A program made the translations under genes and the position numbers. Shown here in pieces: positions 1-42,839 of a stretch of DNA of 64,000 bases. This DNA comes from Bugula neritina (Eukaryota > Animalia > Bryozoa). Numbering within the stretch: the first letter of the stretch is position 1; every line of letters starts with the position of its first letter. The DNA lies in contig OZ037773.1 of assembly GCA_964035545.1 (NCBI GenBank), forward strand, positions 897,751 through 961,750, given 5' to 3'. The notes under the pieces are model-generated. The model did no database searches, was not told the DNA's origin, and saw only the letters and a list, made by a program, of their open reading frames with translations.

Positions 1-859
1 ATGTGGATGGTCAACTACCGTAGGCGTCGAGGACATGCGGCTAAGCTCCAGCCTAAGTTCGTGGGATACTACGTGGTAGTTGAGGCGATACCCAATCATA
101 CATACAAGTTGGAGCGTTCTGGACGGGTCTCTGTCCAGAATGAAGCCCGCTTGAAATCGTATTGGTCTAGCCCAGGAGCAGCAGGAGAAGCCCCCCCCAT
201 TGTTGGAGCCCAGGAGGCAGACAGCAACGCGCGGGCGGCAACGGCATGGACCAGAATACGAAGTGGTTGTGCCGCGGGAAGAGGACTTGGTAAGGCAGGA
301 AAGGCCACTTTCATCAACGGAAGTGCGCCCACCGCCCCCAATACCAAGTCTACCCCCACCACTTCCGAATCCGCATCCGGAAGTGCAAAACCCCCCCGTG
401 GAAGGGGCTCCATCCGGAGACAATGTCGAGGAAGAAAATACCATCACCAACGACGGGCCAGAAACACCACAGGTGGAGCAAAATAGCCCACTAGTGAGTA
501 CACCGCCCCGGCCAACAACCACACCATCCTCCCCAGCTAGTACGTCACCTCCCCTGGAATGGGGACAGCGTACTAGACAACCCTCAGCATACTTGAAAGC
601 CTTCGTTTGTGACCGCGTTACAAACGGCAGTTACGAAAGTCTAGCTGGGCACTGTACGGAAAGACTGGCAGCAAAACGTGGGAGTTGTGAAGACCACGGG
701 AATACTAACTTTTGCGAAGGCGGAGTAGTAGACAAAACTACTACGCTCGAGGCAAATAGTTCCAGCCGTGCGCAGCAAACACGCTGCCCAGCCTTTTCCT
801 ACGCTGACATCGCCAAGGGCAGACGTATCCAAATCCAATCCACTAACATTCAAGCTTGA
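1..859 (+). pseudogene. pol: pol C-terminus of A (integrase GPY/F-SH3 region plus low-complexity tail), frameshift near 190-200
   Basis: ORFs 1-486 and 200-859 join to match the end of pol in D and E (...EAPPLLEPRRQT...FVCDR...FSYAD). Confidence 0.88.
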
Positions 860-868: not shown

Positions 869-2012
869 ATGATTTCAAATGCCGGGTTCCTAGGTGAGCT
901 TGCTCTGACCTAACATTCTCACTCATGGAATCAGGTCTAACATCAGTTAGTTCTAATTTAATCGTCCTGATTGAATCACAACTACTGGAGACTGAGTCTT
1001 ACGTGAAAGACGACGAGAACATAACAATGGCCGACGATCTACTAGATCTCGAGCTTGACACTATGTCTCTCAATCAGTCTACACGCCACGACACAGTCCT
1101 TCGAGTGCCGTCTAAAAAGATGTATGACTCTCAGACTAGGAACAGTTGGTTGTCATCAGAATTATGCTGTAAAGATCACACTCGATCTAACAATAATTCT
1201 GCTCTTTTAGATACCACTCGCTCTTCTCTCTCTCAGGACATGCCGCCATCAGAGATGGCTTGGGATGAGGAATCTACCCCCGTCCTGCTGCCGGAAGTAC
1301 TCCTAACTCAATCATGCTGGATTACCAAGGATACCGAGGCACTCATTCAGGAGAATAAAGGCAATGACCAATGCACCACCTGCCGTCTGTGTCAGCTTCA
1401 TTTCACCACACCTCGCAGACTCCGAGTCCACATCCCCCAACATTATGTCACCACCTTTTGTCCCTGTGGTGAATACAGTTACCACAGGGACTACATCCTC
1501 TGTCATCAGCGGACCATGGGATGCCATGTTGAACATCTCTACGAAGTCGACAAACCCTCTTTTCCTCATTTCCTCGATCTCATCCGGCCAATTATCTCAG
1601 ACCCGACTCGCTATGAACGGCTGCGCCAAGAGTTCCCCGCACCCCGTATCATTACACAAGGACCTTGCCCCAAGCCCCCGGAGTTCAAGACATCCCGAAC
1701 GCCCCGTCCATCACCCCCGCTCACACAGTTCCCTGTCCCAACTCCATACCCAGAGTCGTGCTACAACGCATAAAAGTGCTCCAACGATGGCGTCACTCCC
1801 CTCCCGTTTCCCCACGACCCTCATGTAAACGACGCTGGCCATCTTCATCCCCCAGTCGCCACTCTGCCCCCGCCCGGAACCTGAAGGAAACAGAAGACCG
1901 AATACATGAATTGGAGAGAGAAGTCCAAAGGTTGGCGCCTAGGATATCTGCCACCGCCTCCGAACTCCGGGCTCTCAGCGACTCTGTGGCCCGACTGAAG
2001 AGGAGTGCCTAA
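869..2012 (+). CDS. ORF3 of A: spliced zinc-finger / PxVxL / coiled-coil accessory protein (mini-exon 869-893, intron 894-1210, exon 1211-2012 with one decay frameshift)
   Basis: ATG at 869; CTAG|GTGAG donor; CTAAC..CTCTTTTAG acceptor; CRLC-x12-H-IPQ-H and CPC-x12-H-x5-C; PRVVL at 1749-1763; C-terminal helix LKETEDRIHELEREVQRL. Confidence 0.75.
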
Positions 2013-2355
2013 CCCCCCCTATCTCTACTTGCCCCATTCCCCACTATGCCGCAGGTGGTGTCTCCCTTACAGTCCTCTACCTCGTGCCCGGTGCCATAAC
2101 AAATCTCCTAATGTGACAATCTGATAGCTAGTCTACAAGTATATATTTTTTAGTCATATGGGCCGTCGGCCTATAAGTGCCTCTTCCCGTCAGTAACATG
2201 GTGTCGTTTTCATACTGTTTTATATTTTTTTTTGTATTTGTGTTTTTTTATGTACGTACCATACGCGCTCTCTCTCTCTATTTTATTTGTTTAATATTGT
2301 ATTTTTTAATTGTATCAGTGTTATCAAGAAGGTAGGCTTCCTGCTGGGGGGGCGG

Positions 2356-2641
2356 TGTAGTGGAGCACGCAATACGCACATCCGCGTGTTCCCTAGCCAA
2401 TTAGAGATGCGTCAGGTGACAACCCCCAGCAATGCGTAACGAGAGAGTAGTCAGTAGAGAGAGCGTACTAGCAATCAGAAAGATGTAATACTATAATCCG
2501 TGTGCTTTCTTATATCATTTTACTAGTATGTAATTATAAATGAATCTCTTCTAATCTTATCACAAGCCCTATATTGCTGCAGATAACCAAGTCATAGTTA
2601 CAAGCTAGGAACCACGCATTAGTATTGTGTAAATCACAACA
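2356..2641 (+). repeat. 3' LTR of A (286 bp)
   Basis: Follows the PPT, has TG...CA ends and a CCAAT box; the right boundary is fixed by the empty site in the duplicated copy. Confidence 0.85.
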
Positions 2642-2900
2642 CAATTGCTGTGGTATAGATATTACTCAAAACTCAAAGGCAGGCTAGTTGAACAGTATAA
2701 GCCAAGTAGATAATCGATGATGGTAGGCAATTGAATATTGTTTGTTTTCAACAGTTAGTCATTCTTCAATTGTTACTGAGGTGTTATATATTGTGGTGAT
2801 TTATGGTATATCGGAAAGGCAACTCTTATAATTACTTTGCTACTCTTATGTGCATCGTCTAGGATACGCTAAGCTACACTCGGCCTAGTACTGCCTACAT

Positions 2901-5900
2901 TGTTATGCTACCTCTTTGAACAATGAATGGGATCAACCAATTAGAAAGGAACTAATGATTATACGATTATTAGCAACTTGCATCAGCAGCTGCAGCTAAT
3001 GCTTTGGGATGGAGGTAATGATGTAAGATCACTAGCAGTGGCATCAGCAGTTAGATAGTAGCGCTTGGTCAGTTAGGTTGCATGATTAGCATTTGCCACA
3101 GTATGTAATTCTTCACAGTTATGTATTGTATTCCACTCATGTATAATTCGTATTGAAAAGACGCTATCAACACTTGACGTCGGCAGTTATCAGCTTTAGT
3201 CTTAAATACCCACAGAATTAGTGATTAGCAAAAATTTAGAACAGCAGTGGCACGGTGGAAACTTTGGAAGGCTAATGCAACTGGTCAAAGAGTAAGAGTA
3301 TGGCCAGTGACGATGAAGGAGACATCATCTGTCTAGAGCAGATCGAACCGGCAGCTGTAGAGGATGTCATAGGTGGCCAGCGCCGTCTATGACCAGGAAT
3401 CATTTGCGGGCTTTTACCGTCTGCGAAGATGTGGAGCAGTTTGTTGCTGAGTTTAGCAATGTGGCAGCCAGCTGCCGTTAAGCCCGACGAGATCGGCCAG
3501 AATGGCGACAACATCTTTGAGGCGTTGAGCCTGATTTGGTCTCACCACTTGAGATGCGCGTGTACAACTCCAAGGGCTTAGAGGAGATCTCAAAACTCCC
3601 TTGCATGAGCACGCAACCAAAGTGGAATAGCTGGCGCAGAAGCTTGCCGGCAGAAAATTGGAGGAGTTCGGCACTAGAAGCGTTCTCCAGTCGGTCAACA
3701 ACGTCGGCTTGAAAAGGCACTTGCCGGTAGCCAAAGCTGATACGATGAAGTAAGCGCTTTGGCTTGGGAATGCCTATTTCCAAGCCGCCAGCGCATGCCG
3801 CACTGGTGTGCATGCGCGGAAAGTAAAAGTCAACGATGGGTTATTGCCGTTGTCAGCTGCTGCGGCAGCCCACGTAGCCACGACAGCAGCTGGAAAAACC
3901 GGCTTAACCGCGAGCCTGGTCCAAGAGCTGTTCGCCAAAATCTGGCGTCGGCTCCAACAACCGTCAGCTGAGCGGCATGCTAGGCCGCCGACAGCTGCCA
4001 CCAGCAAACGCGTCCCTGTTTGTTGGGGTTGTGGTAGTAGAAGACATCTTTTGATGAGCTGTCCCCACTGTGGAAGAAAGCAGTTAAACCCAGATGGTCC
4101 ACTCTGGATTCCGCCAACCTTGGGCGTCGATTTAACCCTTCAGGACCAAGGCCAAGGCCCAACCCTATAGGGCGAGGAAGCCGCCTTCAAGGGAATGGCA
4201 AGCCCCAAGGAGTCAGCAGACGGCAAGGTATGCTGAAACCTCCAGCTTTGTCACTCAAAAGTTGGTTTGAGGGATTGCAGGAGGAAGAAGTATACGAGGA
4301 GTGGGAGCAGGAACGAGATTTCACTCGGCCTGCCACAAGACCTCGGAAACCCCTTCGCAATCGGAAAGCACAGGCGCATCCCAAACTAAATGCACATGAG
4401 GTTTAGCCTCCGAAGATGAGCTGCTCAGTGAGCGCTCAGCCATGTGGAAGCAGTTATTTCGTGCCCGGCAAACGTGCCGGCGAAGCTGAAACATTCCTGT
4501 TGGACACTGGGTATACCACTAATCTCCTGAGCCGGAAATGTTTGGACACACTCAATCCAAGAGACAGGGTTGACCTGGAGCCATATGAAGGGAACACCAC
4601 GTGTGGGCGGACGGGTTGTGTATTCTATTCTCTGGCAAGAGAGAGCTGACAGGCCGAGTCTGTGATCAGGTGATCAGCGAGACCTTCATCGTCAGTCAGC
4701 TGATGTCATCGTCATCTCTCCCACATTTGACACTAATGTGAGTCAGCTTAGAGAGGTGTGCGACAAGCTCGGGGTTGCCAGTCTAAAGCTCAAGCCCTTT
4801 AAGTGTGCATTGTTGCAGCAAGAGGTTAACTACCTAGATCATGTAGTTGGCCGGGGCAAGGTCGCTACAGACCCTGAGAAGGTCTGAGCTGTGAAAGACT
4901 AGGTTGTCCTTCTGAACCTCACTAAATTTCAAGCATTCTTGGGGTTGATAACGTACAACAGGAAGTGCATACCCGACTTTACAGAAATTGCTCAGCCGTT
5001 GAATCGGCTGACAGCAAAGCAGCTTCGCTGGCAGTGGACGTATGCAGAGCAGCAGGCATTAGAGCACCTCAAGAATTGCTGGATGGTGGCACCTATCTTG
5101 GCTAACGAGGTTTTGTGTGAGCAGCAATGGCGGTATCCTTCTTTGTATAAGGAAGGGGACTGGGTCTGGATAATCAGTCACTACCAGCGGTGTGGACAGG
5201 CGGCTAAGTTACTACCAAAGTTCGTGGGTCGCAATTGCATGACTGAGGTCATGCTCAATCACACGTATAAAGCGAATCGATTGGGTCAAGTGTCGATCCG
5301 GAACAAGGCTCGCCTGTAGCCATATTGGGTGAGACCTAATGCAGCAGGGCAGAATCCTCCACTCCTAAAACCTACGTGCCATCTGACCACGAGGGGATAG
5401 GCTAGACCAGACAGGACATTAAAAGTTATGGTGCAGAATCCGGAAGAGGCGACCGAAGAGCCGGCAGACCGGCTACAACATTAGTAGAGCCGGCCGACGC
5501 ACCTGTGGTCTCATATAAAATTGATACTCCTCAAATTGATGACGATAACAGAACTGGCAAGAAACCACCCGTACCGGTAAACCCTCTGCTGCGAAAAACC
5601 TCAGTACCGTTAGAACGTAATTAGTGTACTGGGGCTCCTCCATCTTATCTTCAATACTTCCTTCATGATTTGATTGACATGTATAATATATTATATATCG
5701 TCAGTTAGTACAAAAAAAGTCTGGGGGCAGTAATTGAGCATTGTTTTCCCCAGTGGTGTATGCACTAATTTAGCTGGGGTGCTCAGCAGAGGCAAAGCCA
5801 ACTCACAGGCTGAAGGAGGTGTTATGTAATCACTCTTGCTCTGTTGAGTACCCTTTTCAATTGTAACTGTTGAAGTGACAGCACGTCTTCGTGACCATTG

Positions 5901-6880
5901 GCAGCTACGAGCTTTAAACAGACAGTATGACTGACACTGTGACTTATTTGGAGGGTAAGTCCATTAAGGAAATTCTGTTATTTAGTTAGAATTTAGCCTA
6001 GTAGCCGAATTCAGTCTCACTTCAGCATAATGATCAAGTTGGTCTCCTGGCGACTTGGAGTTGACTGATCACTGAGATGGTTTATGGATACCAGGAGATT
6101 CTTGACTATCCAACTCAGTCGAAGTGTGGTACTGACAAGATGAAGCCTCCTACAAGAAAGTGTGTGATTTAGTACCGCTTACAGTTGAATCCATGTACTC
6201 TGTTGCAGGTGAGGCTCCGCCTGCATCCCCCGGGTTGCAGGCTTTGCTAGATGCCCGACCCCAAACTGGGAAATGCATTTTTTTCCACCATGAAGCAGGA
6301 GAGCGTGCACGTGCTACAGCATTTCACAGTGACCTTGTGCCCCTGTAGCGTCCACAATTTTTATAGACGCTATCCTCTGTCATCAAAGGAATCAGCAGTG
6401 CCATGTCGGCCACTTAGTGGAGGTAGATCAAGACTCCTATGCGCAATTCCAAGACTTGATTCTCCTCATGTATCCTCCCCATTGAGACGTGAGTCATTGC
6501 TGCAGGGGTTTCACAGTTCCTGGCCAGTGATACCAAGTGACTCAGATGCCACTGGTTCCAACTATGACCCTGTAGTCTATGTGTTTGATGAAGTACAGAC
6601 GTGTTCTCTTTGCGTGATGGTAACCCGTGCTGGTCGGTCAGCAGAAGAGTCTACTCAGCCACTTCCCTCTCAGTCCTCCCATACCCTTGCATTGCTCCGG
6701 AAGAGAAGGGAGAAATCAAAAACTACGACAGTCCCTAATGACACAATAGATGCTGAGATATGTACTAACTTAGAGAAACTACAACGATGCTGCACACAAC
6801 TGTGTAAGGAGCAGTGAAGGACAGCATCGAAACTAGCTAGGTTGCAGAAGCTCTGCAACAGATGGACTGCTAACTGAACA
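2901..6880 (+). mobile_element. Old, internally deleted Gypsy element C (5' LTR ~2901-3242, degenerate PBS, gag with CCHC knuckle, PR/RT/IN fragments, ORF3 remnant; no 3' LTR seen)
   Basis: CWGCGSRRHLLMSC zinc knuckle, FLLDTG protease motif, IPDFTEIAQPLNRLT, KLLPKFVG, HVLQHFTVTLCPC. Many stops and frameshifts. Boundaries approximate. Confidence 0.82.
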
Positions 6881-7761
6881 AAACGTACCTTAGCCTATAC
6901 AAAAAGTGATGAATAACTATTTCTTGCTACTATTCCCAGCAAAGACTGCTAGTGATGCTAAGAAAGGTATCCAGTCACAATTGCCATTTAGCAACACGAC
7001 GCAAGAAAACGAGTCCAATTAGCCTGTTTAAACGCCCTTCACTTTACACAGTGGCAGTTTGTGTTTGCTGCAACTACATTTAATACAATATATGACTCCG
7101 TTTCTTAGTACCGAATACGTATCATAATAATCTATTATAATTCTAGCAATGGATAACAAAAGCATACCTTTTGATTATCCAATCACTCCTGAGACTACTA
7201 CTGCAACTATCACAGCAATGAAAGTAGAAAGTATGCCACCTATCAGACCTCCCTTGTTCACAGCAGTTGAAGTGGGGGTTGTAGGGGGTATGGTGGCAGT
7301 ATCCTTCCACATTATTTCCCATTTGATAGTCACTGTCTTTGCTGAAACCGATTTAAAGACATTTTGAAGAAAAAATAAGTTTAAACTTAAAAAACATCTA
7401 CCACTAACATTAGCAAATTAGAAAAAACATTTACAATTGTCATTCATTTATATAAGTGCTAATTCTTACATAAGCCATTTTCAGCGGTACATTCAGCTGT
7501 TTCTGTTACACCGTTTGTCTGAGGAACTAGAGTCAGCTCATTGGATGATTCAGTTGTCACAACTCTATTATATGTCCAAGTGAACGTAGAGGGCGGTGGG
7601 TTGGCATCCACATGTTGGCTACAATCTAGTCTAGCATCAGAATGTCCAGGATTGAGTTCTTTCACAATTGGATCTGGATCATCAGCCTTTCTATCCAAGT
7701 CTACAAAAATGAAATTCATAGCACAGGGCTGTCTAACAGGAGGCCCCAGGACCGGATGTGG

Positions 7762-8066
7762 TGTTGTATTTTTCAGAATTAGGGTTGATGTGTAACCAAG
7801 AGAGTCTATTTGTTGCTAGAGACTTCACCAGGATTAGTCGGGTTGATATCGTTGTATTTTAACACAAGAATACATAATAAAAAGGATATAAAAACTGGTA
7901 ACAAATCACACGTCTATTTAATTTACTGCACTATCCTCAACTGACTAGTAGCGCGAAGCTAACTACTGCTACTCACTAGCAGCTTCGCTAATTGGCTGAG
8001 TACATTGTTCCGGGTCAATACGCGACCCTGCGTATTGTGCTGTTGGTAGCTCCACGAGCCACCACA
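7762..8066 (-). repeat. 3' LTR of B
   Basis: Direct repeat of 14889-15194; the PPT is adjacent at 8067-8080. Confidence 0.95.
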
Positions 8067-8344
8067 CCGCCCCCACCAGCAGAAAGCCCTCTTTCTGATA
8101 TAAAAATAATTTACAAGTAACTACGTACATCAGTGGACTAAACGGAAGCAAACATATAAAATGTATATACAAGATCCAAATTAGTTAGATACATATATAT
8201 AGATATAAAAAGAATACACAATAAACTAACATTAAGTAATTAGTAAGTCTTATTTACATATAGAGTACGTGCCACAGTCACGGCAGGGAAGGCCACAGAG
8301 AGGTAGTAGAGGAGTGAGGTGGAAGGCTGGGGAAGGAGCTCATA

Positions 8345-9469
8345 TTAATCCTGGGCTGCTCGTTTCATACGTTTGATAGACTCTTGTAGCGACCGGAGCT
8401 CACTGGATGCGGCATAAATGCGGGGGGCCAGTCTGTAAACCTCTTGTTCCAGCTCATTTGTCCTGGTCTCTACTTCTCGTAGGTTTTGGGCCAGAGGGGA
8501 TGAGCGGGAGAAAGTCTGCTGCTGCCGGTGTCTTTTTTCGTTCTGCGGACGGAAGTGGGAGAGGAAGTGTGTACGTCTTCGTGTCTACCCTCTGTAGTAC
8601 GACACGGGGGAGTGTATGTGGTCGACGTATGGGACTGAGAGGTGGGGAATTAGATGACTTCGTAGGTTTATCTACGGGTTCCGAGATGATGGGTTTAGGG
8701 GAGGGAAAGCCTTGCTCCAGGCGAGATAGCCGAGCTGGGTCGGTGATGAGAGGTCTGATAGCTTCGAGGAATGCTGAGTAAGATGATTTATCCACATCGT
8801 ATACGTGTCCCTGAAAGCAATGCATGGTGCGTTGATGACGCAGTAGATAGTCTCGGTTATAACTATATTCCCCGCAGGGGCAGAACGTTGTGATAAAATG
8901 CTGCGGCAAGTGGACTCCTAATCTACGACGAGTTGTAAACCGCCGTTGGCATTCACGGTTATTGTCATCCCCTCTATATTTCTTAATTTCTGTCTCTGTG
9001 GCAGGGGTAGTCCAGTTGGAGGTTGCTTCTAGCTGGTGTGGCAGCTGTCTGGTTGTGGAAGTTGCTGGGACCGGCTCTGGGTCCCACGCCATCTCTAGAG
9101 AAGGCATGCCCGGGGAGACAGGCGCGAGTGTGTCTACAAAAGTAGAATTATTGTCAGATCGTGGCGGACCTTTACAACATAATTCTAGTGACTGTCGACT
9201 GTTACTAGTCTGAGAGTCACAACTTTTTGAATGCACTCGAGAGACCAGTGAATCATGTGTGGACTGACCAAGAACAGTGTCTAGCTCCAGGTCTAACAGA
9301 CCGTCGGCCATTACAGCGTCCTCGTCGTCATTCACGTGAAACGTGGTCCCTAGTAATTCTGATTCAATCTGATGAATTAGCTCAGAATTTACCGGCATCG
9401 AGCCTGGTTCCATGGATAGGAATACAAGATTTATACTGGCTTACCTGTGAACTCGGTATTAGTGTCCAT
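8345..9469 (-). CDS. ORF3 of B (mini-exon 9469-9445, intron 9444-9134). A 9-nt deletion damages finger 1, and there is a frameshift before the coiled coil
   Basis: ACAG|GTAAG donor; CTGAC..TTTTGTAG acceptor; HLPQH..FCPCGEYSY..H..C; PRVVL at 8595-8609; ELEQEVYRLAPRIYAASSELRSLQESIKRMKR. Confidence 0.78.
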
Positions 9470-12400
9470 ACTCAATGTTCTTGGTAAGGTTGGAGCTAAT
9501 TGTAAAGTACTTCTGCCCTTGGCGATGTCAGCGTAAGAAAAGGCTGGGCATCGTTTCTGAGGCACGAGGTCGGAATTATTTGTTTTATGCGCATTAATTC
9601 CTCCCACTACTCCGCCCTCGCAAAAGTTGATATTTGCGTGGGGTTCACAACTCCAACATTTCTCCGTACGGGTTTCCCCTAGACTTCCATGGGTGCCGCT
9701 TCTAATGCAGTCACATACGAAGTCTTTTAAATATGGTGGGGGTCTCCTCGTACGCTGTCCCCGTTCTAGGGGGGTGACACGCTCGCCGGTTCATTAGCAG
9801 GGGCCTCTAATGGCAATTCTACTTCACCGTTAACGGTCACTTCTTCCTGTTCTCCGGATGGAGCCCCTCCCTCCGTGGGGGTTTGCACTTCCGGAACCGG
9901 CTCGGTTTCTGGAAGTGATGGAATCAGACTTGGCGGCGGCGGACGCGCCTCTGTTGGCAAAAGCTGTCGCTCTTCTTTCACCAAGTCTTCTTCCCGCGGT
10001 ATGACCACTTCATATTCAGGTCCATGCCGCCGTCGCCCACGCGTTGTTGTCTGCCTTCTAGGCTCTAACAACGGGGGGCTTCTCCCACTGCGTCGGGGCT
10101 AGCCCAATACGGTTTCAAGCGAGACTCATTCTGGATAGACACCTGTCCTGAGCGTTCAATCTTGTACGTATGATTGGGCATAGCCTCGACGATCACGTAG
10201 GGTCCCACGAACTTAGGCTGTAACTTAGCTGCCTGTCCGCGACGCCTACGGTAATTGACCATCCACACCTAATCCCCCGTCTGATAGAGGGGTGGTTCCT
10301 CGGAATCTTCATGTAGCACCTTCCACTGCTGTTCGCGCAGTATTTCGTGTGCGGCCTTCATCCGTTCCACTAGTTCACTGGCATGCGCATGAACCGAGTT
10401 GTCTTGCTCTGGAACGTGGTAGGTGAGATGGTCAAGGACACGAGTCTCTTTCCCGAGCATCAAGAGGTTTGGGGTTTCACAAGTACTGATGTGTGGGGTG
10501 CTACGGTATGCACGCATGACTTGCGGCAACACCGTGTATCATTCCTCCAGACCGCGTCCAAGGAGGAGGCTCCGGAGCGCATCACCTAGCATCCGGTTGT
10601 TGCGCTCCACCACCCCGTTACCTTGAGGGTGGTAGGGGGTGGTCCGGCTCTGATTTACTCCCCAGAGGCAGCAAAGGTCGCTCATCAGTTGAGACTGGAA
10701 TTGAGCGCCTTGATCAGAGTGTATCTGTTCGGGGAGACCGAAATAACAGAATACATGTTGGTCTAGCACCCGGGCCACGGTTGGAACCGACGCATCTGGG
10801 ATGGTCAGAGCGTCCGCCCACCTCATGAAGTGGTCGGTCAATACTAAGATCCAACTATTGCCTCTGGGGGTTGGAGGCATAGATCCGACCAGGTCTACAG
10901 CGACTACTTGCCAAGGCCTTCCAGCATATAGCCTCCGCCGTCCCGCTTCGCCAGGAAGACGGCCATGCTTACTGGCCTGGCAGATTTCACTCTGAGTCGG
11001 ACGTCCCGCTCCATCTGGGGCCAATACCACCGGAGTCGTAGTTTGGAGATCACTCTCTTGACTCCTGCGTGAGCCTGTTTGTGAGCGTCCCAAATCAGCT
11101 CACGGTGGATGGCAGTGGGGCAGACCACCCTCTTCCTCTCTGGGTGTCTGCCGCTGGCAGCTAAAGAAATGGTCAGTAGACCATCCTGCCCGATCCGCAG
11201 CGAGTCCCAACGCTGGCAGTATAGCTGGAACTCGGCGCATCCCTGCCGTATGCGTTCCTCGCTGAGTCGTCGCCCTTCCTTTTTGGCCCGATATATGTCC
11301 GCTACTACCCCAGGCAGCTCTCCTTGGAGCTTCTTCAGCTCCCGGACATCATCGGCCAGTACAGGATTGGCGCGGAAGTTTTGTACAACCTCCGGGGACT
11401 CGTCAACTTTCTGCCTGAGTTGACCCTGGTCCCAATCAAATTGTGCTCGGTGGTGAGCCAGTGTCTAATTCACATCGCGGGGAACCTCCGTCCCTCCTCT
11501 CGATATTGAGACACTGTTTGCAACCATCAGGTCGGCGGCTCAGCCCATCCGCATTGCTGTGTCTCTTGCCCGGTCGATGTTCGATCCGGTACGAGAACTC
11601 AGCTAGGATTTAGAGCCACCGGGCGACCTGACTGGAGGGTTTGGCCCTCTTGCACAACCAGATCAGCAAGGCATGATCCGTACGCAGCCGGAACTTCCTG
11701 CTGTATAGGTATGGTCTGAAGTGCTTCACTGACTTGATTACTGCCAGCAGCTCCTTGTGGGTAGTGCAGTAATTTCGTTCAGTGGGTGAGAGAGACTTGC
11801 TGTAGTAGGCTACTACTACTTCTCGGCCTTCCTGCACTTGAGACAGCACAGCGCCAACATTCTGGTCACTGGCGTCAGTGTCGAGGATGTACTCCAGAGC
11901 GGGGTCTGGGTAGGCCAAGATGGGTGCCGTCAGTAGGCAACCCTTGAGGCGATCGAACACTTCTTGTTCGACCGGGGTCCACTGCCCTGTCACCCCCTTT
12001 GCGGTGAGCCGGTTTAACGGCTGGGCTATGCCCGCAAAGTCTGGTATGTATTGTCTGTAATACCCTACCAGCCCCAAGAAAGCCCGGAGTCCGGTCAAGT
12101 CTTGGGGGGTGACCCAGTCTTCTATCGCCCGTACCTTTTTGGGATCCGTTGCCACACCGTTTCGACCGACAACGTGCCCCAGGTACTTGACCTCCGGCTG
12201 CAATAGAGCGCACTTGGAAGGTTTGAGCTTAAGACCGGCACCTCGGAGTCTCTCGAAGACCTCCCGCAGATGACTGACATGTGTCTCGAAGTCTGGGAAG
12301 ATCACGATGACATCATCGAGGTAGATCAGCAGTGTCTTCTAATGGAGCCCGCTGAGGACTTGCTCCATCAGCCTCTGGAAGGTGGCTGGGGCGGAAGTTA

Positions 12401-14034
12401 ACCCGAAAGGCAACACTTTCCACTTCCACAAACCGTCCCTTGTGATAAACGCCGCTTTCTCCTGGGCGTCGGGACTCAGAGGAACTTGCCAGTAGCCACT
12501 CAGCAAGTCTAACGTACTGAAGTACTTGCTGCCGGCTAGGGCATCCAATGACTCGTCAATACGAGGTAGAGGGTAAGCGTCCTGTATGGTTACGCTATTG
12601 AGTTTGCCGTAATCCACACAGAACCGCCAACTGCCGTCTTTCTTCCGTACCAGTACGACCGGCGAGCTCTACGCACTATGGGGGGGCTCTATGAGGCCGC
12701 GGACCAGAAGATCCCGTACTTGTCGGCTAACCTCCTTTTCTTTTTCTGGCCCCAGCCTGCGTGTGGGTTGCCGGACAGGGACTGTCCCTGCAGTCAGCGG
12801 TATTTCGTGTCTGACAACTCCAGTCAGCCCCACGTCATGATCTCCGCTGCTGAACACATCACCGTAGTCGCGTAGCAACTTCGCCATAGCTTGGTGTTCC
12901 TGGTTGCTCGCGCAGCCACCACAGGCTGTCTCATATAACTTCCGGATGTGTGTGGGGACCACTCCTCTCTTTTGAGTAGGGTGTCTAGGAGGTGTCTCCG
13001 TCGCATCACCCAGCGACGGGCCCACGTCCTCTTCCTGGACGGAGTGAATTCGGCCCAGCATTGACCCAGCTGGAAGCTTGATGGGCTCGGTAAAGGGGTG
13101 TTGACACAATGCACTAAGATCTCCCCTCGCTCAGTTAGTCGGTTTAAACTACTGGCGAGTTGGATCCTATCGTGCGCGCCTTCAACAACCCCGAGTCTTG
13201 CTATCCGGTTGCTGTTCACTCGGCAGTGGATAGTGGCTCTGGAGCGTCCGGGTACAGTACAGTTTCGAACTACCTGAACACCGCCCACCAAAGGACGCTC
13301 AAACTTATCCACACAGGCGAGTTCTCGCCCGCCCATCAGCACTGCCGACTTGCCAAAGTCTATGCGGCATTGGTGCTGCTTCAAGAAAGGCATTCCGAGG
13401 ATAGCATCTTCGTCCAGCTGGCTTATGACAAAGGTCTCTTGTACAGCCTGGTCTCGGACACGCCCAGAGAGCTCGATAATACCGTAGAAGGGAATACACG
13501 ACCCGTCTGCTAGGGTGCCATATTCTCCCGTATACGGTCGTACTCTATCCCTGTCTTGGCGGGGCAGTGCCTCAAAGACTCTACGACTGAGAAGGTTGGT
13601 AGTACAACCGGAGTCTAGCAGGAAGGTGACGGCGTTACCCGCCACCTTTACGGGTGGGAAGTAGCTCTCTCCGTGTGGTTGTACTTTCACCCCCCCGCAT
13701 GTGTTGTCCTAAGTGGGTAGGACGGCGGGGGTTTTACCCGTGGTTTACGGGGTTTCCGGCAGCGTGGTCGGTGCCGGCGGGGTTCGGAGCTCTCCACTGG
13801 GCCTTCTGGCTCTAATTTAGTGGCGGGCTCCTCTTCCCGAGGTAACCGGTGGAACCGGTTGGTGAGTGGCAGGGAGAAGGTACTCGGCCGCTGTGCGGGC
13901 CTGCTAGTCCTGCGTGGTACCTGCCACTCGAGGGGAGTGTACCGTCGTGTCCGTACGAACAGGCGGCAGCGTGTTCCACCCTGTTCCTTCAGTTTCGGCC
14001 CGCGGGGAGGAAGGGCGTCCGCGGGCCGTGACAG
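9431..14034 (-). pseudogene. pol: pol of B (PR-RT-RNaseH-IN), several stops and frameshifts
   Basis: [18 protein letters not shown] (12311-12322), LDTDAS, integrase core DHF..HSDQG..VERNN. Confidence 0.93.
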
Positions 14035-14855
14035 TTTAACGCCCCCTGGTGTTGGGGTCGTCCTGGCTGTCTATGGTCTTGACCAGCACTAGTCCAGCCC
14101 GGCCCCGCAGGTGCTGGGGGCAACCGCGGTTCCTGACCGGGGCCAGCGCTGGCAAGAATCGTTACCAGCTGTCCCAACATCTCTACCATACGGTCTACTT
14201 CGGCTTCCACAGGGGGAGCTTCGGGGCCCGCCGTAGCTCTGGCAGCACTGACTCCAACTGCTGGTGGGTTCCCTTGCGCTCGGTGCATTTGGGTAGCCAA
14301 CAGATAAGCTTCTCCAGCCTTTAAGGCATCCTCTATCGTGGTGATTCCTTTAGCTCGTAGTTGGTGGTGTAGGCCCAGGTCGTTCAGTGACTGGACGAAA
14401 GCGTCGTAGGTGTAACGCTCTTGGTGTTGTGCTGGTAGGTCACCATATGCAATTTGTGCCAGCTTCTTCACCATCGCGGCATGCTCTTGCAGCGAGGTCA
14501 GCGGGGTGCGGCACAATCTCTGTAACCGGGTCCTGGCGTCTATTGCGGAGATGCCAAAGCGGCCCCGCAACGCAGCCAATATCCCGTCTACGTCCGTTCC
14601 CATTCCGTACGGCTTGGCTTGCTCCGCCAACGCTCTCCACAACTGGATAAGGGCCACTCTATGCGGCCATTGTGCAATATCCATGACTTCTCTAGACTCC
14701 TGTATAAACTGTTCGACATCTTCTGACCCAGTAAAGGTGGGGGCTTTCAAGCGATATCGATAAGCTTCTTCTCCCACATGATTCACAGGAATAACATCAT
14801 TTCTTCGCTCACCTTCTACTGGGGGTGGTTGCATTCTAGCATTTTCAGTCTCCAT
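13989..14855 (-). CDS. gag: gag of B
   Basis: Open 288-aa ORF just after the PBS (LKAPTFTGSEDVEQF); closely matches gag of D. Confidence 0.9.
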   Translation of the reverse strand: METENARMQPPPVEGERRNDVIPVNHVGEEAYRYRLKAPTFTGSEDVEQFIQESREVMDIAQWPHRVALIQLWRALAEQAKPYGMGTDVDGILAALRGRFGISAIDARTRLQRLCRTPLTSLQEHAAMVKKLAQIAYGDLPAQHQERYTYDAFVQSLNDLGLHHQLRAKGITTIEDALKAGEAYLLATQMHRAQGNPPAVGVSAARATAGPEAPPVEAEVDRMVEMLGQLVTILASAGPGQEPRLPPAPAGPGWTSAGQDHRQPGRPQHQGALNCHGPRTPFLPAGRN

Positions 14856-14869
14856 CTTTGATGTACACT

Positions 14870-14887
14870 ATCCCACCGCTGCCACCA
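14870..14887 (-). promoter_or_regulatory. Primer-binding site complementary to the tRNA-Leu 3' end (TGGTGGCAGCGGTGGGAT)
   Basis: Lies 1 nt inside the 5' LTR; complement of the eukaryotic tRNA-Leu end ...AUCCCACCGCUGCCACCA. The same PBS occurs in D, E, F and the 27.6-kb fragment. Confidence 0.9.
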
Positions 14888-14888
14888 C

Positions 14889-15194
14889 TGTTGTATTTTT
14901 CAGAATTAGGGTTGATGTGTAAACAAGAGAGTCTATTTATTGCTAGAGACTTCACCAGGATTAGTCGGGTTGATATCGTTGTATTTTAAGCACAAGAATA
15001 CATAATAAAAAGGATATGCAAACTGATAACAAATCACACGTCTATTTAATTTACTGCACTATCCTCAACTGACTAGTAGCGCGAAGCTAACTACTGCTAC
15101 TCACTAGCAGCTTCGCTAATTGGCTGAGTACATTGTTCCGGGTCAATACGCGACCCTGCGTATTGTGCTGTTGGTAGCCCCACGAGCCACCACA
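14889..15194 (-). repeat. 5' LTR of B
   Basis: Direct repeat of 7762-8066. Confidence 0.95.
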
Positions 15195-16523: not shown

Positions 16524-18977
16524 CATATTACATCACTTGTATAACAATAATTAGCTAAACTAAAACCTGGTTTGTTGTTCACTAAATTTAAAATTTAATT
16601 TGCTTCTAGTTTTCTAGATAGAAATTTGGGGAAGCTTGTTGCACAACATTTAGACAGGTATATACTTACCGTATTCATAGACTGACACAGGATCTGCTCC
16701 TGTAGAGTTACAATCAAAGGTAAATTCTTCCCCTTCTATAATAGTTGCTGGTTTATTAAGTGTTATGCCAGTTGGAGCAACTGTAGAATAAAGAAATGCA
16801 CAATATATGTTTTCAAATACAGGTGCATTGATGTATTGTAAATTAGGTTAGGACTGCAGTAAGGGCCTATGCTATATCCTGGGTAAATTGTGTCAATAAA
16901 AAGTGTAAATTTAAATAGCAAAACTGCAACATTCCAAGTCTGCCTATGATAACAGTTATCTGAAACTACATGCCAACCAGATATCCTTATGTGATCCTGA
17001 ACAGAAAATTTCCAACAAAGGTATAATAAACTAAAATTTGTCCTCTACCAAACAAGGATAGGAAATATACTATTTTGATTTAACTAACCACCACCATCAT
17101 GGGAAAAGTTAAAGTTTATCACGTGATCTTTCCATGAGATACTGAACAGAATTTTTCAACAAAGGCCTAATATAACAAATATTATCCACTATCCATAAAA
17201 TGCATATCAATCACATTATTTCAATACCAATAATACCAATCTTGGGAACAGTTAAATTTGTCTATGAGGAAGAAGGAGGAAATAACTTAGAAATTATGAG
17301 AAGTTGTACTAGAAATGGCTAAAGTGGTATATAAAGGCTATCAGTGACCAAAGAAATTAGTTTGAACTTTGAAGTGTTCACCTTTGACTTCCATTGAAAT
17401 TTTTAAGGAGAGAACTTCTCCCACACCACCTCCTTCAAACCCTCTACAGTAGAACTTCCCTTTGCGTGATGAATCAGTTGCAGTGAGTTGTACAGAAAGA
17501 GTGAACCCTTCAGGTTTACCAACTGAGTTACAGTCTGCATGGCTGACTCCAGAACCTTCTATTCCAGAGACAGTAATAATTTCTGGAGTTGATGAACTCC
17601 GCCATACTGTCTCATCCTCAGAACTTGGAATACATCCACTTTGATAGATTGTACTGTCTCCATCAGCTTCATATCGTAACTGTAAAGTTCTCAGATCAGT
17701 ATAACCAGATGCTTCACATGTGAAGGTTATATTCTCATCTTTATAGAAGTCAGGTGAGCTTGTAGTAGTGTAGTTCATCTCTGTAGATGGTTGACCTAAA
17801 CATATGTCATTTTAATAGTTTAGCTCAATACTAATCCAATTGTGGAAATGAAAAGAAGAATTTTGGCCAACTCATTCAGACTTTTATGTGACACTGCCAT
17901 CACAAGAAAGGAACATCTACAAGTTGTGTGAGCATAAAAATCATATCTAAAAGGAATAGAAATGTGGTTACCAACATTCATTTAAAAGTAAGAACCAGAC
18001 TTATCAATCACTGAAAATTTATTCAGAAATATTCACTTACCAATTGTGTAGCTAAATAGTAATAATACTTTAAAAATGGTTATCCAGGGAAGTTTCATAT
18101 TCCTGAAAATAACAAATAACACTAAATAGTATAAATACTGGCCTGCATACTTAAATATATATTAGCTATAAAAACCAGCTAGGAAAAAATACTGGATAAA
18201 GAAATGTTATAAAATTAAAGAAATTCATAAAAGCAAACGCCATCATTATGATGAATGAAGTTAACAGCTGGAAATGTAGAAACTGCCTACAAATGAGAAC
18301 CAGTGAATTAGTGTGTGCAACAGACAGCAGGGTGGCCAGAATCATCTTGAGGTCACAGCAAATCAAAGCAAGCCAAGTCACTGGCTAACTAAGTTAAGTT
18401 TAGAGAATTGAAAACAATGACTGGAAAGAAAATAAATTGAATAGATTTCAAAGTTGGATAAGTTAGTTTTAATTTAAACTATTTTGAAATTTATGTCTAT
18501 CTACATAAATAGATTTACTGAAAACAATGATGAAGTTAAATTTAATATGTCATGCAATGCATTTCTCTACATGAATATTCTAAAGAGGAAAAGTTTTATT
18601 ACAAGTAATTCAGACCTGCAAGCCTAATAAAGTGATATTGTGGTGGCTCGTAGAGCTACCAGCAACACAATACGCAAGGTTGCGTATTGACCCGGAACGA
18701 TGTATTAGCCAATTAGCTAAGCTGCTTATGAATAATAGTAGCAGCTTCGCGCTACTAGCCCAGTTGAGGATAGTGCTGTAAATTAAATAGACGTGTGTAT
18801 TATTAACTGTTGTATATTAGATTTTATTATGTATTCTTGTATTCAAATATAACGATATCTACTCGACTTATCACGGTGAAGTTTCTCTAGTAACAAATAG
18901 ACTCTCTTGGTTGCACATCGACCCTAATTCTGAAAATCATAACAGTGGTGGCAGCAGTGGGATAGTGTACATCAAAG

Positions 18978-19844
18978 ATGGAGACTGAAAATGCTAGAAT
19001 GCAACCACCCCCAGTAGAAGGTGAGCGTAGAAATGATGTTAATCCTGTGAATTGTGAGGGAGAAGAAGCTTATAGATATTGCTTGAAAGCTCCCACCTTT
19101 ACTGGGTCAGAAGATGTCGAACAGTTTATACAAGAATTCAGAGAGGTAATGGAGATTGCTCAATGGCCGCATAGAGTGGCCCCTATCCAATTGCGGAGAG
19201 CGTTGACGGAGCAAGCCAAGCCGTACGGAGTGGGAACGGACGTAAACGGAATACTGACTGCGCTGCGGGCCCGTTTTGGCATCTCCGCAATAGACGCTAG
19301 AACCAAGCTACAGAGATTGTGCCGCACCCCGCGGACCTCGCTGCAAGAACATGCCGCGACGGTGAAGAAGCTGGCACAGATTGCGTATGGTGACCTACCA
19401 GCGCAACACCAAAAGCGTTACACATACAACGCCTTTGTCCAGTCACTAAACGACCTGGGCCTACACCATCAACTTCGAGCTAAAGGGATAACCAGAATAG
19501 AGGATGCCCTGAAGGCTGGAGAAGCTTACCTGTTGGCTACCCAAATGCATCGAGCACAACGGAACCCACCAGTAGTTGGAGTCAGTGCTGCCAGGGCCAC
19601 GACAGGCCCCGAAGCCCCCCCGCTGGAAGCCGAAGTGGACCGTATGGTAGAGATGCTGGGACAGCTGGTAACAATTCTGGCCGGCGCTGGCCCCGGTCAG
19701 GCCCTGCGGTTGCCCCCAACACCTGTGGGGCAGGGCTGGAGTAGTGCTGGTCAGGACCATGGACAGAAAGGACGACCCAAATACCAGGGGGCGTTAAACT
19801 GTCACGGCCCGCGGAGGCTCTCCCTCCCCGCGGGCCACAACTGA
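18978..19844 (+). CDS. gag: gag of D
   Basis: 288-aa ORF after the PBS; no CCHC knuckle. Confidence 0.9.
   Translation: METENARMQPPPVEGERRNDVNPVNCEGEEAYRYCLKAPTFTGSEDVEQFIQEFREVMEIAQWPHRVAPIQLRRALTEQAKPYGVGTDVNGILTALRARFGISAIDARTKLQRLCRTPRTSLQEHAATVKKLAQIAYGDLPAQHQKRYTYNAFVQSLNDLGLHHQLRAKGITRIEDALKAGEAYLLATQMHRAQRNPPVVGVSAARATTGPEAPPLEAEVDRMVEMLGQLVTILAGAGPGQALRLPPTPVGQGWSSAGQDHGQKGRPKYQGALNCHGPRRLSLPAGHN
19793..19836 (+). promoter_or_regulatory. Putative -1 ribosomal frameshift signal (G_TTA_AAC + 6-nt spacer + GC stem-loop)
   Basis: Stem GGCCCGCGG/CCGCGGGCC; the -1 frame is open from 19799 into the pol leader. The same arrangement is in B (~13996-14040, minus). Confidence 0.7.
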
Positions 19845-22800
19845 AGGAGTCTGGTGGGACACGCCGTCGTCTGTCCATACGGACACGACGGAACACTCCC
19901 CCCGAGTGGCAGGTACCACGCAGGACTAGCAGGCCCGCACAACGGCCAAGTACCTTCTCCCTGCCACTCGCCAACCAATTCCACCGGTTACCTCGGGAGG
20001 AGGAGCCCGCCACTGAAATGGAGCCGGAAGGCCCAGTGGAGAGCCCCGAACCCTGCCGGCACCGACCTCGCCGCCGGAAACCCCGTAAACCACGGGTGAA
20101 ACCCTCGCCGTCCTACCAATCTAGGACAGCACATGCGGGGGGGGGTGAAAGTACAACCACATGGAGAGCTATTTCCTACCCGGAAAGGTGGCCGGCAACG
20201 CCGTCACTTTCCTGCTCGACTCCGGTTGTACTACCAACCTTCTCAGTCGTAGAGTCTTTGAGGCACTGCCCCGCCCGGACAGGGATAGAGTACGACCGTA
20301 TACGGGGGAACATGGCACCCTGGCAGACGGGTCGTGTATTCCCTTCTACGGTATTATCAAGCTTCCTGGGCGTGTCCAAGACCAGGCTGTACAGGAGACT
20401 TTTATCATAAGCCAACTGGAGGAAGATGCTATCCTCGGAATGTCCTTCTTGAAGCAATACCAGTGCCGAATAGACTTCAGCAAGTCGGTGGTGCTGATGG
20501 GCGGGCGAGAACTCGCCTGTGTGGATAAGTTAGGGCGTCCTCTGGTGGGCGGTGTTCAGGTAGTTCGAAACTGCACCGTGCCCGGATGCTCCAGAGCTAC
20601 TATCCACTGCCGAGTGAACAGCAACCGGATAGCCAGGCTCGGTGTCGTTGAGGGCGCGCACGAAAGGATCCAACTCGCTAGTAGTTTAAACCGACTAACT
20701 GAGCGAGGGGAGGTCTTAGTGCAGTGTGTCAACCCCTTTACCGAGCCCATTGAGCTCCCAGCTGGGTCAATGCTGGGCCGGTTCCACTCCGTCCAGGAAG
20801 AGGACGTGGGCCCGTCGCTGGGTGACGCGACGGAGACACCCCCTCGACACCCTACTCAGGGACGAGGGGCAGTCCCAACACATCTCCGGGAGTTATATGA
20901 AACAGCCTGTGGCGGCTGCGCGAGCAACAAGGAACGCCAAGCGATGGCGAAGTTGCTAAGCGACTACGGTGATGTGTTCAGCAGCGGAGATCATGACGTG
21001 GGGCTGACTGGAGTTGTCAGACACGAAATACCGCTGACTGCAGGGACAGTCCCTGTCCGGCAACCCACACGCAGGCTGGGGCCAGAAAAAGAGAAGGAGG
21101 TTAGCCGACAAGTACGGGATCTTCTGGACCGCGGCCTCATAGAGCCCGCCCATAGTGCGTGGAGCTCGCCGGTCGTACTGGTCCGGAAGAAAGACGGCAG
21201 TTGGCGGTTCTGTGTGGATTACCGCAAACTCAATAACGTAACCATACAGGACGCCTACCCTCTACCTCGTATTGACGAGTCATTGGACGCCCTAGCCGGC
21301 AGCAAGTACTTCAGTACGTTAGACTTGCGGAGTGGCTATTGGCAAGTCCCTCTGAGCCCCGACGCCCAAGAGAAAGCGGCGTTTATCACACGGGACGGGT
21401 TGTGGAAGCAGAAGGTGCTGCCCTTCGAGTTAACCTCCGCCCCAGCCACCTTCCAGAGGCTGATGGAGCAAGTCCTTAGCGGGCACCATTGGAAGACACT
21501 GCTGGTCTACCTCGATGATGTCATCGTGATCTCCCCAGACTTCGAGACGCATGTCAGTCGTCTGCAGGAAGTTTTCGAGAGACTCCGAGGTGCCGGTCTT
21601 AAGCTCAAACTTTCCAAGTGCGCTCTATTGCAGCCGGAGGTCAAGTACCTGGGGCACGTTGTCGGTCGAAACGGCGTGGCAACGGATCCCGAAAAGGTAC
21701 GGGCGATAGAAGACTGGGTCACCCCCCAAGACTTGAGCGGACTCCGGGCTTTCTTGGGGCTGGTAGGGTATTACAGGCAATACATACCGGACTTTGCGGG
21801 CATAGCACAACCGTTAAACCGGCTCACCGCAAAGGGAGTGACGTGGCAGTGGACCCCAGTCGAACAAGGAGCATTCGACCGCCTCAAGGGCTGCCTGCTA
21901 ACGGCGCCCATCTTGGCCTACCCAGACCCCGCTCTGGAGTACATCCTCGACACGGACGCCAGTGACCAAAACGTTGGCGCTGTGCTGTCTCAAGTGCAGA
22001 AAGGCCGAGAGGTAATAGTAGCCTACTACAGCAAGTCTCTCTCACCCGCTGAACGAAATTACTGCACTACCCACAAGGAGCTGCTGGCAGTAATCAAGTC
22101 AGTGAAGCACTTCAGACCATACTTATACGGCAGGAAGTTCCGGCTGCGTACGGATCATGCCTCGCTGATCTGGTTGTGCAAGAGAGCAGAGCCCTCCAGT
22201 CAGGTCGCCCGGTGGCTCGAAATCCTAGCTGAATTTTCCTACCGGATCGAACATCGACCGGGCAGGAGACACAGCAATGCGGATGGTTTGAGCCGCCGAC
22301 CTGATGGAGGTTGCAAACAGTGTCTCAACATCGAGAGGAGGGACGGAGGTCCCCCGCGATGTGAGTTGGAGACGCTGGCTTGCCATGGAGCACCGTATGA
22401 CTGGGACCAGGGTCAACTCAGACAGGAGGTTGACTAGTCCCCGGAGGTTGTACAAAACCTCCGCGCCAACCCTGTACTGGCCGATAATGTCCGAGAGCTG
22501 AAGAAGCTCCAAGAAGAGCTGCCTGGAGTAGTGGCAGACATATATCGGGCCAAAAAGGAAGGGCGACGACCCAGCGAGGAACGCATAAGACAGGGATGCG
22601 CCGAGTTCCGGCTATACTGTCAGCGTTGGGACTCGCTGCGGATCGGGCAGGATGGTCTACTGACCATTTCTCTAGCTGCCAGCGGCAGACACCCGGAAAG
22701 GAAGAGGGTGGTCTGTCCCACTGCCATTCGCTGTGAGCTGATTTGGGACACTCACAAACAGGCCCACGCAGGGGTCAAGAGAGTGATCTCCAAATTACGG

Positions 22801-24415
22801 CTCCGGTGGTATTGGCCACAAATGGAGCGTGACGTCCGACTCAGAGTCAAACAGTGTGAGATCTGCCAGGCCAGTAAGCATAGCCGTCCCCCTGGTGAAG
22901 CGGGACGGCGGAGGCTATATGCTGGAAGGCCCTGGCAAGTAGTTGCTGTAGACCTGGTCGGACCCATGCCCCTGACCCCCAGAGGCAATAGTTGGATCTT
23001 AGTGCTGACCGACCACTTTACTAGGTGGGCGGATGCTCTGGCTATCCCAGATGCGTCAGCCCCAACAGTGGCCAGGGCATTAGACCAACATGTATTCTGT
23101 TATTTTGGTCTCCCCGAACAGATACACTCTGATCAAGGCGCTCAGTTCCAGTCTCAACTGATGAGCCACCTTTGCCACCTCTGGGGAGTAAATCAGAGCC
23201 GGACCACCCCCTACCACCCTCAAGGTAACGGGGTGGTGCAGCGCAACAACCGGATGCTAGGTGATGCGCTCCGGAGTCTCCTCCTTGGACGCGGCCAAGA
23301 GGAATGGGATACGGTGTTGCCGCAAGTCATGCGTCCATACCGTAGCACCCCACACACCAGTACTGGTGAAACCCCAAACCTCTTGATGCTCGGGAGAGAC
23401 TCGTGTCCCTGACCATCTTACCTACCACGTTCCAGAGCAAGACAACTCGGTTCACGAGTATGCCAGTGAACTAGTGGAACGGATGAAGGCCGCACACGAT
23501 ATACTGCGCGAACAGCAGTGGAAGGTGCGGCACGAAGATTCCGAGGAACCACCTCTCTACCAAACGGGAGATAAGGTGTGGATGGTCAATCACCGTAGGC
23601 GTCGCGGGCAGGCTGACAAATTAAAGCCTAAGTTTGTGGGACCCTACGTAATCGTCGAGGCTATGCCCAACCATACGTACAAGATTGAGCGCTCAGGACA
23701 GGTGTCTATCCAGAATGAGTCTCGCTTGAAGCCGTATTGGGCTAGCCCCGACGCAGTGGAAGAAGCCCCCCCGTTGTTGGAGCCCAGGAGGCAGACAACA
23801 ACACGCGGGCGACGGCGGCATGGACCTGAATACGAAGTGGTCATACCGCGGGAGGAAAACTTGGTGAGAGAGGAGCGACAGCTTCTGTCAACAGAAGCGT
23901 GTCCGCCACCGCCAAGTCTAATTCCATCACTTCCAGAAACCGAGCCGGTTCCGAAAGTGCAAACCCCCACGGAGGGAGGGGCTCCATCCGGAGAACATGA
24001 AGAGGTGACCACTAACGGTGAAGTAGAGAGGCCATTAGAGGCCCCTACTAATAAACCGGAGAGCGTGTCACCCCCCCTAGAACGGAGACAGCGTACGAGG
24101 AAACCCCCACCATATTTAAAAGACTTCGTATGTGACTGCATTAAAAGCGGCACGCATGAAAGTCTAGGGGAAAACCGTACGATAAAATGTTGGAGTTGTG
24201 AAACCCACGCAAATATCAACTTTTGCGAGGGCGGAATAGTGGGAGGAATTAATGCGCGTAAAGCAAATAGTTCCGACCTCGTGCCTCAGAAACGATGCTC
24301 AGCCCTTTCTTACGCTGACATCGCCAAAGGCAGACATATCTCACAACCAGCTCCAATCTTACCAAGAACGTTGAGTATGGACATTAATACCGAGTTCACA
24401 GGTAAGCCAGTATGA
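19799..24415 (+). pseudogene. pol: pol of D (PR-RT-RH-IN) with about 3 lesions: G-run indel ~20140, TAG at 22435, frameshift ~23395
   Basis: LLDSG, VYLDD, LDTDAS, H-x3-H..C-x2-C, DDE integrase core, GPY motif. Confidence 0.95.
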
Positions 24416-36884: not shown

Positions 36885-36914
36885 TCCATCTGCATCCAAG
36901 CTTGAACGTTGAGT

Positions 36915-42670: not shown

Positions 42671-42839
42671 AATGTTGATGTTAAACTGTAATTCTCTTGT
42701 GAGTTTAATCTAGATAATTTGTCTATCTTGTTTGTCAGACTTATTAATTTATGCTCGCTAGTATAATGTAAACAGAGCAAGATTTCAAAAGATCGCTAGG
42801 ATAATCTTTATTTTGGTTTGGGTAATTTCTTGTAATATT

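Follow-up and report, generated by a model that had tools for sequence, protein, structure and literature searches.

The window analysed here, a stretch of 64,000 nucleotides from the bryozoan Bugula neritina (GenBank assembly GCA_964035545.1, contig OZ037773.1, positions 897,751–961,750), is crowded with Ty3/gypsy elements in which a sense-strand gene, termed ORF3, lies downstream of pol. In copy A this gene encodes PRVVLQRI (positions 1749–1772, plus strand), i.e. PxVxLxR followed by a hydrophobic residue. The box by which KAP1 contacts HP1 is PRVSLERL. The likeness poses the question of whether a retrotransposon protein engages HP1, and to what end. An earlier note on this DNA read the motif as an HP1 box and proposed that ORF3 either steers integration into heterochromatin or modulates silencing. 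The reading favoured here, tentatively and at somewhat less than an even chance, is that ORF3 may be a nuclear accessory protein that acts on the element's own DNA and likely engages HP1 there.

The elements and their third gene

Pfam matches give the elements the domain order protease, reverse transcriptase (RT), RNase H and integrase, and the closest solved relative of the RT is the Ty3 RT. LTR pairs of the form TG...CA are 94–97.7% identical. A polypurine tract and a primer site, which we take to be that of tRNA-Leu, are also present. ORF3 follows pol in each element, in a total of eight copies (A, C, B, D, E, F, C′ and B′). Spliceosomal signals, together with an RTE-like LINE, indicate that the window is DNA of animal type.

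Copy A begins, at the window edge, with a broken segment that encodes the C-terminal part of the integrase and the pol tail (1–859, plus strand), and it ends with a polypurine tract and 3′ LTR (2344–2640, plus strand, the end being approximate). Element B (7762–15194, minus strand) has LTRs at 14889–15194 and 7762–8066 with 97.7% identity and a target duplication of four bases. Element D (18639–25251, plus strand) consists of a 5′ LTR, gag start, pol and an ORF3 that is truncated at the start of the motif. Element E (31264–38651, plus strand; LTRs at 31264–31538 and 38377–38651, 96.7% identity) is inserted in element F, and its target duplication falls inside an AT run. Element F is on the minus strand, has LTRs at 42046–42396 and 30845–31195, and shows no target duplication. 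Regions 6263–13800 and 56432–64000 are one direct duplication of 7.6 kb (97.5% identity), from which come both B/B′ (B′ at 57931–64000, minus strand) and C/C′; the members of these pairs are therefore not independent. Pieces upstream of this duplication, 2891–4703 and 51720–53530, also match each other, at 83–91%. A further fragment at 27605–27974 (minus strand) has a B/D-type LTR and, after it, the primer site and the opening codons of gag, past which the sequence is unrelated. The copies had been described as densely nested. Gypsy pieces do make up ~68% of the window by rough spans, but the only clear nesting is that of E within F.

ORF3 is disrupted in every window copy between the zinc fingers and the end of the C-terminal helix, or is truncated. 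In copy A, a frameshift after ~1683 separates the zinc-finger open reading frame (898–1773) from the motif, which is in the frame of the helix. The motif belongs to the gene after pol, as was thought, but is out of frame with the zinc-finger ORF in which it appears to lie. In B and B′ the fingers and the motif share a frame and the helix is in another (8491–8348 in B, minus strand). Their motif, PRVVLQRV, is at 8609–8586 and 58778–58755 (minus strand); the interval 8595–8609, given previously, holds the pentamer alone. Element E has PRVLFHRV at 37796–37819 (plus strand), with the ORF3 frame broken on either side. In element D the motif indeed breaks off at LPR, since the element gives way to unrelated sequence past 25251. 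The ORF3 of F (38900–39643, minus strand) has the zinc domain and helix and, as had been noticed, is devoid of the motif, as are all 24 in-frame F linkers.

Copy C, a decayed C-type ORF3 (~6200–6850, plus strand), had been credited with PVVYV at the motif position. That peptide is in the wrong register: an intact C-type protein, P0195, pairs its LRVVVTRT with LCVMVTRA instead, and this homologue lies at 6608–6631, with its duplicate at 56777–56800. Two other candidates are rejected, both of which fall in the folded domain, within its first helix. One is a further PxVxL of copy A, at 1291, which also fails the HP1-ligand consensus at -1 and +4; the other is LPVVL of F-type proteins.

Intact relatives in the database are ~360 residues in length and have, in one frame, a two-finger zinc domain, then the motif-bearing linker, a basic patch and a long C-terminal helix. 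In copy A (plus strand) the zinc domain (1264–1656) is composed of a W-helix, a C2H2 finger (1381–1443), a second finger of the form CxC...H...C/H, and a helical cap. The basic patch, KRRW (1827–1838), is likely a nuclear import signal, and the long helix with a heptad pattern (1872–2009) is likely a coiled coil. AlphaFold2 modelling of relative P0003 predicts a confident region at residues ~120–243, a disordered linker at 244–314 (pLDDT below 50, with the motif at 276), and a helix at 314–364; the zinc domain modelled alone has a mean pLDDT of 91. The predicted zinc ligands (C40, C43, H56, H60, C66, C68, H81 and C87) are 90–100% conserved in 60 rows.

Similarity to known folds is slight. The Pfam C2H2 match is weak (E 0.01, below cut-off), and so is the best fold match of the zinc domain, to the Kaiso fingers (Z 3.4, rmsd 2.8, 57 aligned). 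It is from these two weak C2H2 matches that we infer DNA binding by the fingers. Fold searches with the whole model, which gave generic helices, and with the zinc domain, which gave weak C2H2 rows, returned nothing at E≤0.001 or Z≥8, and the linker matched no sequence of a solved structure. An Atlas search found unnamed clusters and C2H2 families. None of the pattern matches in metagenome contigs (60) and viral contigs (61) was confirmed as a relative. Three distant relatives, P0181, P0211 and P0269, have the zinc domain repeated at least two times. Between distinct elements, dN/dS of the zinc exon is ~0.1–0.2, with the synonymous sites of the exon near saturation, a comparison that establishes purifying selection on the zinc domain.

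An envelope role for ORF3 can be set aside. No signal peptide or transmembrane anchor is found in eight of eight proteins, whose top 19-residue hydropathy of 0.65–1.33 denotes no hydrophobic stretch, and there is no env family among the Pfam matches of ORF3.

Predicted splicing and the integrase

The ORF3 message is likely spliced in the manner of env, from either the gag start or the pol tail, to judge by the arrangement of candidate sites. An acceptor with a pyrimidine tract is found upstream of the zinc domain in A (1210), B (9134), B′ (59312), D (24712), E (37255), F (39643) and C. Donors recur at two places. One is 10–14 codons into gag, in B (14812), D (19021), E (31622) and F (41967). 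The other is in the pol tail of A (donor 2, first intron base at 894, phase 1), B (9444), B′ (59622), D (24402), E (36940) and F, where it is a donor-like site (40666). All ten donors score 7–8 of 9 on a simple consensus, a level reached by 3.1% of 7,686 GT dinucleotides, and phase 1 is found throughout the sites computed (five pol-tail donors, five acceptors and three gag donors). In F, ~700 bases between the pol tail and the acceptor (~39900–40600, minus strand) are unlike database F-type sequence where compared.

Two database proteins resemble the predicted joined products. P0163 has a 14-residue leader that is followed directly by post-acceptor residues, and the best of 127,912 window positions for this leader is, narrowly (29 vs 27), the F gag start ending at the donor. 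P0086 starts with M..NT.F., an eight-residue pol-tail segment, and then has post-acceptor residues; its leader is in register with the short ATG-led pol-tail segment of copy A (869–893, plus strand; M-x-x-N-x-x-F-x). By itself, the P0086 leader was not among the top matches in the window scan. The contigs that encode P0163 and P0086 are 5,320 and 7,886 bases in length, and the presence of joined forms on contigs of this length is suggestive of reverse transcription and reinsertion of spliced messages. When contigs of one sequencing run, of unspecified kind, were compared with B′ and A, none of the joints examined (15 of 22 for B′, both of two for A) fell at a predicted splice site. A 41-base mini-intron that would end just past the ORF3 ATG was considered and discarded; its AG is missing in D, and in E it has 40 bases.

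The predicted intron of copy A (894–1210, plus strand) is 317 bases in length and forms an open frame from an ATG of its own at position 925. Splicing of A-type elements would omit 95 codons, which would give a long form with an acidic N-terminus if retained and which are open in five of five copies. pN/pS of the skipped region is 0.51 in the ORF frame vs 0.63–0.90 in the other five frames, and synonymous divergence across 894–1210 and its homologues in B, B′, D and E is about half that of the zinc exon. These three properties fit an intron that is translated when retained. The stretch that encodes RVPYK is kept even in G/C-type proteins. Perhaps 894–1210 is also a cis-acting DNA or RNA element that overlaps coding sequence, and it is a candidate for one.

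Splicing from the pol tail would bear on integration. If ORF3 steered integration into heterochromatin, this splice would fuse the zinc domain, motif and helix to the integrase, and an HP1 tether would take the place of a chromodomain. Donor 2 is read in the frame of pol, and its phase agrees with that of the acceptor, in five of five copies tested. Pol-tail sequence is found in frame with ORF3 in four of 304 database proteins, which may, however, owe this to deletions or frameshifts. Only in B, B′ and D does pol stay open as far as the pol-tail donor, with its stop four codons inside the intron. Absence of a chromodomain had also been pointed out, and none is detected in the integrase tails of D and E, the two that were scanned (E≤0.1); the integrase C-terminal match is to SH3_Tf2-1/MLVIN_C and is under the curated cut-off. 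The abundance of gypsy pieces in the window is in keeping with steering as well, but the solitary nesting and the presence of the motif-less F in the same cluster are not. In A and E, pol stops 12 codons ahead of the donor, hence no integrase–ORF3 fusion would arise from them; for the stop of copy A, no alternative letter appears among 40 of 60 rows from the contigs of one run. In addition, splicing from the gag leader would yield a free protein. Steering is thus the weaker of the two mechanisms proposed, since ORF3 apparently has its own spliced message and a fusion-ready pol is confined to B, B′ and D. We consider it improbable.

Conservation of the motif and its fit to HP1 ligands

Among 128 database proteins of at least 100 residues, 39 are in frame from the end of the zinc domain to the helix. 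The motif proline is kept in 36 of these, the valine in 38, the leucine in 39, and the arginine at +4 in 36. With valine as position 0, the core positions -2, 0 and +2 fit HP1a ligands in the same numbers of relatives; copy E, with F at +2, does not fit. Codons under the motif in A, B and E differ by synonymous changes, and, as judged from the codons, the motif is maintained by purifying selection at the protein level. It is also the best-kept eight-column window of the linker (0.83 vs a mean of 0.53, in 12 non-redundant of 40 linkers). The linker had been termed otherwise variable, but in the same set the domain end (0.78) and the KRRW patch (0.76) are conserved almost as well.

A profile search of 1.84 billion representatives gave 329 matches (clusters at 50% identity) at E≤0.001, and subfamilies were counted in 67 length-filtered proteins among the matches listed (150 of the 329). 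Within that set, six of 16 A-type representatives, many of which are frameshifted or cut, have the motif. In the sister G/C subfamily, eight of 15 members, which are related to one another, show L-x-V-x-[LVI]-x-[RK] at the corresponding position (e.g. LRVVLARV), vs 0.5 expected. The motif is found in none of the 12 F-type representatives listed. A tree of 54 zinc domains leaves A, G/C and F as a three-way split without resolution, so that loss in F and gain in an ancestor of A and G/C are both possible.

Farther out in the family the pattern fades. Distant relatives have the published core classes in seven of 33 vs 6.5 expected, with a mirror decoy doing better (7 vs 2.6), and the full HP1a consensus in four of 33 vs 3.6. 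A looser pattern seemed enriched (five of 24 vs 1.4) and is rejected, as the published classes do not uphold it. With these classes at expectation and the decoy higher, the signal in distant relatives is not robust and counts as no evidence. Conservation across copies had been put forward as a check; the motif is kept in the A and G/C subfamilies, absent from F and not enriched in the distant relatives.

Bare PxVxL is a common pattern: the window has 33 across its six frames, 4–12% of shuffled linkers contain one, and the relatives may stem from few host lineages. The motif could then be incidental, a functionless chance PxVxL inherited among related copies. Yet its amino acids are kept through synonymous changes, in an exon whose synonymous sites approach saturation, and the motif persists between subfamilies although their flanking linkers do not align. 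The longer form, [PL]xVxLxR[ILV], is found in 0.03–0.4% of shuffles. An incidental origin is the least probable of the explanations weighed here, and a very doubtful one.

As described in the available part of one study, fly HP1a ligands have a hydrophobic residue at -2, V or I at 0, an aliphatic residue at +2 and a near-invariant basic residue at +4; a hydrophobic residue at +5 is frequent, and the ligands also have a disordered setting, three to six basic residues from -4 to +4, and no S or T at -4 (PMC12526061). The same portion of text indicates that ligands with proline at -2 often have no basic residue at -3 or -4, that non-fly ligands may differ, and that a loose PxVxL-type pattern is present in more than half of fly proteins (PMC12526061). 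Replacement of PxVxL by LxVxL is recognised as a variation of HP1 ligands (PMC7465937, available part), and KAP1 contacts HP1 through PXVXL (10.1101/553511, available part).

The ORF3 motif follows this grammar in part. Among 68 instances picked by regular expression, 59 are basic at +4 and 67 have I or V at +5. Two of the 68 satisfy the full HP1a consensus, and 66 fail at -4, the consensus being that of the fly, from which non-fly ligands may differ. Basic residues number only two in 53 of 68 and three in four of 68, vs the three to six of the fly consensus. The HP1-box interpretation thus gains from protein-level selection, the predicted disorder of the linker, the LxVxL variants of the sister subfamily, and the residues at +4 and +5, but loses from failure of the strict Drosophila consensus at -4 and in basic count, from the motif-less F subfamily and from the lack of enrichment in distant relatives. 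From sequence considerations, the chances that the motif binds HP1 appear to be about even.

The evidence from F would fit a different role, in which ORF3 is a nuclear accessory protein that acts without HP1, e.g. as a transactivator or RNA-binding regulator, with the motif serving another partner or self-assembly. F-type elements are abundant and have no motif, and what stays constant throughout the family is the zinc domain and the helix rather than the motif. The failures just listed for distant relatives and the strict fly consensus point the same way. On the other hand, the positions common to A and G/C (-2, 0, +2, +4 and +5) conform to the HP1-ligand grammar, as does the exchange of P for L at -2 (PMC12526061, available part). 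Because a whole subfamily is without the motif, an HP1-independent regulator is almost as likely as the favoured reading.

Candidate functions, known systems and other features

The favoured reading, in which an accessory protein is likely to engage HP1 on the chromatin of its own element, would work as follows. Splicing would place 10–14 codons of gag, or else a short stretch of the pol tail, in front of an exon whose start lies shortly ahead of the zinc domain, and intron retention would give the longer form with an acidic N-terminus. The protein would be imported into the nucleus, where its fingers may bind the element's own DNA and its long helix may oligomerise it. The PxVxLxR motif would enter the HP1 chromoshadow dimer, and by this means the element would tune its own silencing. 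The direction could be either way, i.e. HP1 recruitment as self-restraint, or displacement of host ligands as counter-silencing. There is a slight lean to recruitment, since the DNA-binding domain and the motif are on one chain. F-type elements would function without the HP1 arm.

In the KRAB-ZFP/KAP1 system, DNA binding and the HP1 box are split over two host proteins. A bolder proposal is that ORF3 is a one-chain zinc-finger/HP1 adaptor in the env slot, with env-like splicing, a transposon-made counterpart of KRAB-ZFP/KAP1 that controls heterochromatin on its own copies and that in some lineages is alternatively spliced onto the integrase as an HP1 tether. Taken as a whole, this is rather unlikely.

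Several known systems are partly alike. Chromoviruses and the yeast element Ty5 tether to heterochromatin through a C-terminal integrase module. In contrast, no chromodomain is found in the D and E tails, and the module here is a separate exon that can be fused to the integrase only in some copies. With HP1 chromoshadow ligands such as KAP1 and the fly HAC proteins, the motif has in common the core at -2, 0 and +2, a basic +4, a hydrophobic +5 and predicted disorder; it differs in being transposon-encoded, in failing the fly consensus at -4 and in having two basic residues and not three to six. In insect gypsy elements (errantiviruses), env is produced from a spliced message, which in the idefix subclade fuses a Gag peptide to env (10.1101/2023.08.03.551782, available part). 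Those elements and the present ones both have a sense-strand third ORF after pol, with splicing predicted for ORF3, but ORF3 has no hydrophobic stretch and possesses zinc fingers, a basic patch, a helix and a second donor in the pol tail.

Bdelloid LTR retrotransposons carry non-env ORF3s (GDSL, DEDDy, coiled-coil and TM types), typically from spliced messages (PMC5408684, available part). These are captured third ORFs also unrelated to env, but the words 'zinc' and 'C2H2' do not appear in the available part of that paper, nor is a chromatin-binding motif described there. VANC of the Arabidopsis VANDAL transposons is an accessory anti-silencing protein that acts on the chromatin of its own family (PMC6719617, available part). 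It is likewise a transposon-encoded accessory protein, action on own chromatin being only proposed for ORF3; VANC, however, comes from a plant DNA transposon and acts on DNA methylation. The terms 'zinc finger' and 'C2H2' are absent from PMC13524379. In the openly licensed literature, as far as its available text goes, no retrotransposon-encoded PxVxL protein or gypsy zinc-finger accessory ORF was found. Non-env third ORFs are thus already known, and it is the env-like spliced zinc-finger accessory type that was not met with in that literature.

Direct binding of HP1 by a retrotransposon protein, if true, would give access to the way in which animal transposons deal with heterochromatin, and one genome offers a built-in comparison between motif-bearing A and G/C types and the motif-less F. 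Even without HP1 binding, a zinc-finger accessory gene as widespread as the 329 clusters indicate, with predicted env-like splicing, would have no described counterpart among the openly licensed papers searched.

The window has other features apart from the gypsy elements. An ARAGORN prediction of tRNA-Asn at 63910–64000 (plus strand), cut by the window end and within the gag-pol region of B′, is probably spurious. A 156-codon frame at 17341–17811 (minus strand) has an immunoglobulin-like cysteine pattern and no Pfam match, and is perhaps a host exon. The 178-codon frame at 42785–43321 (minus strand) has no Pfam match either, and we take it to resemble the GIY-YIG endonuclease of Penelope-like elements. 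Two simple-repeat arrays, at 44075–44262 and 45662–45831, show matches within themselves and to one another in both orientations. An RTE-like LINE at 46839–50156 (plus strand) has its endonuclease and RT in two pieces and, at the C-terminus, a C2H2 finger.
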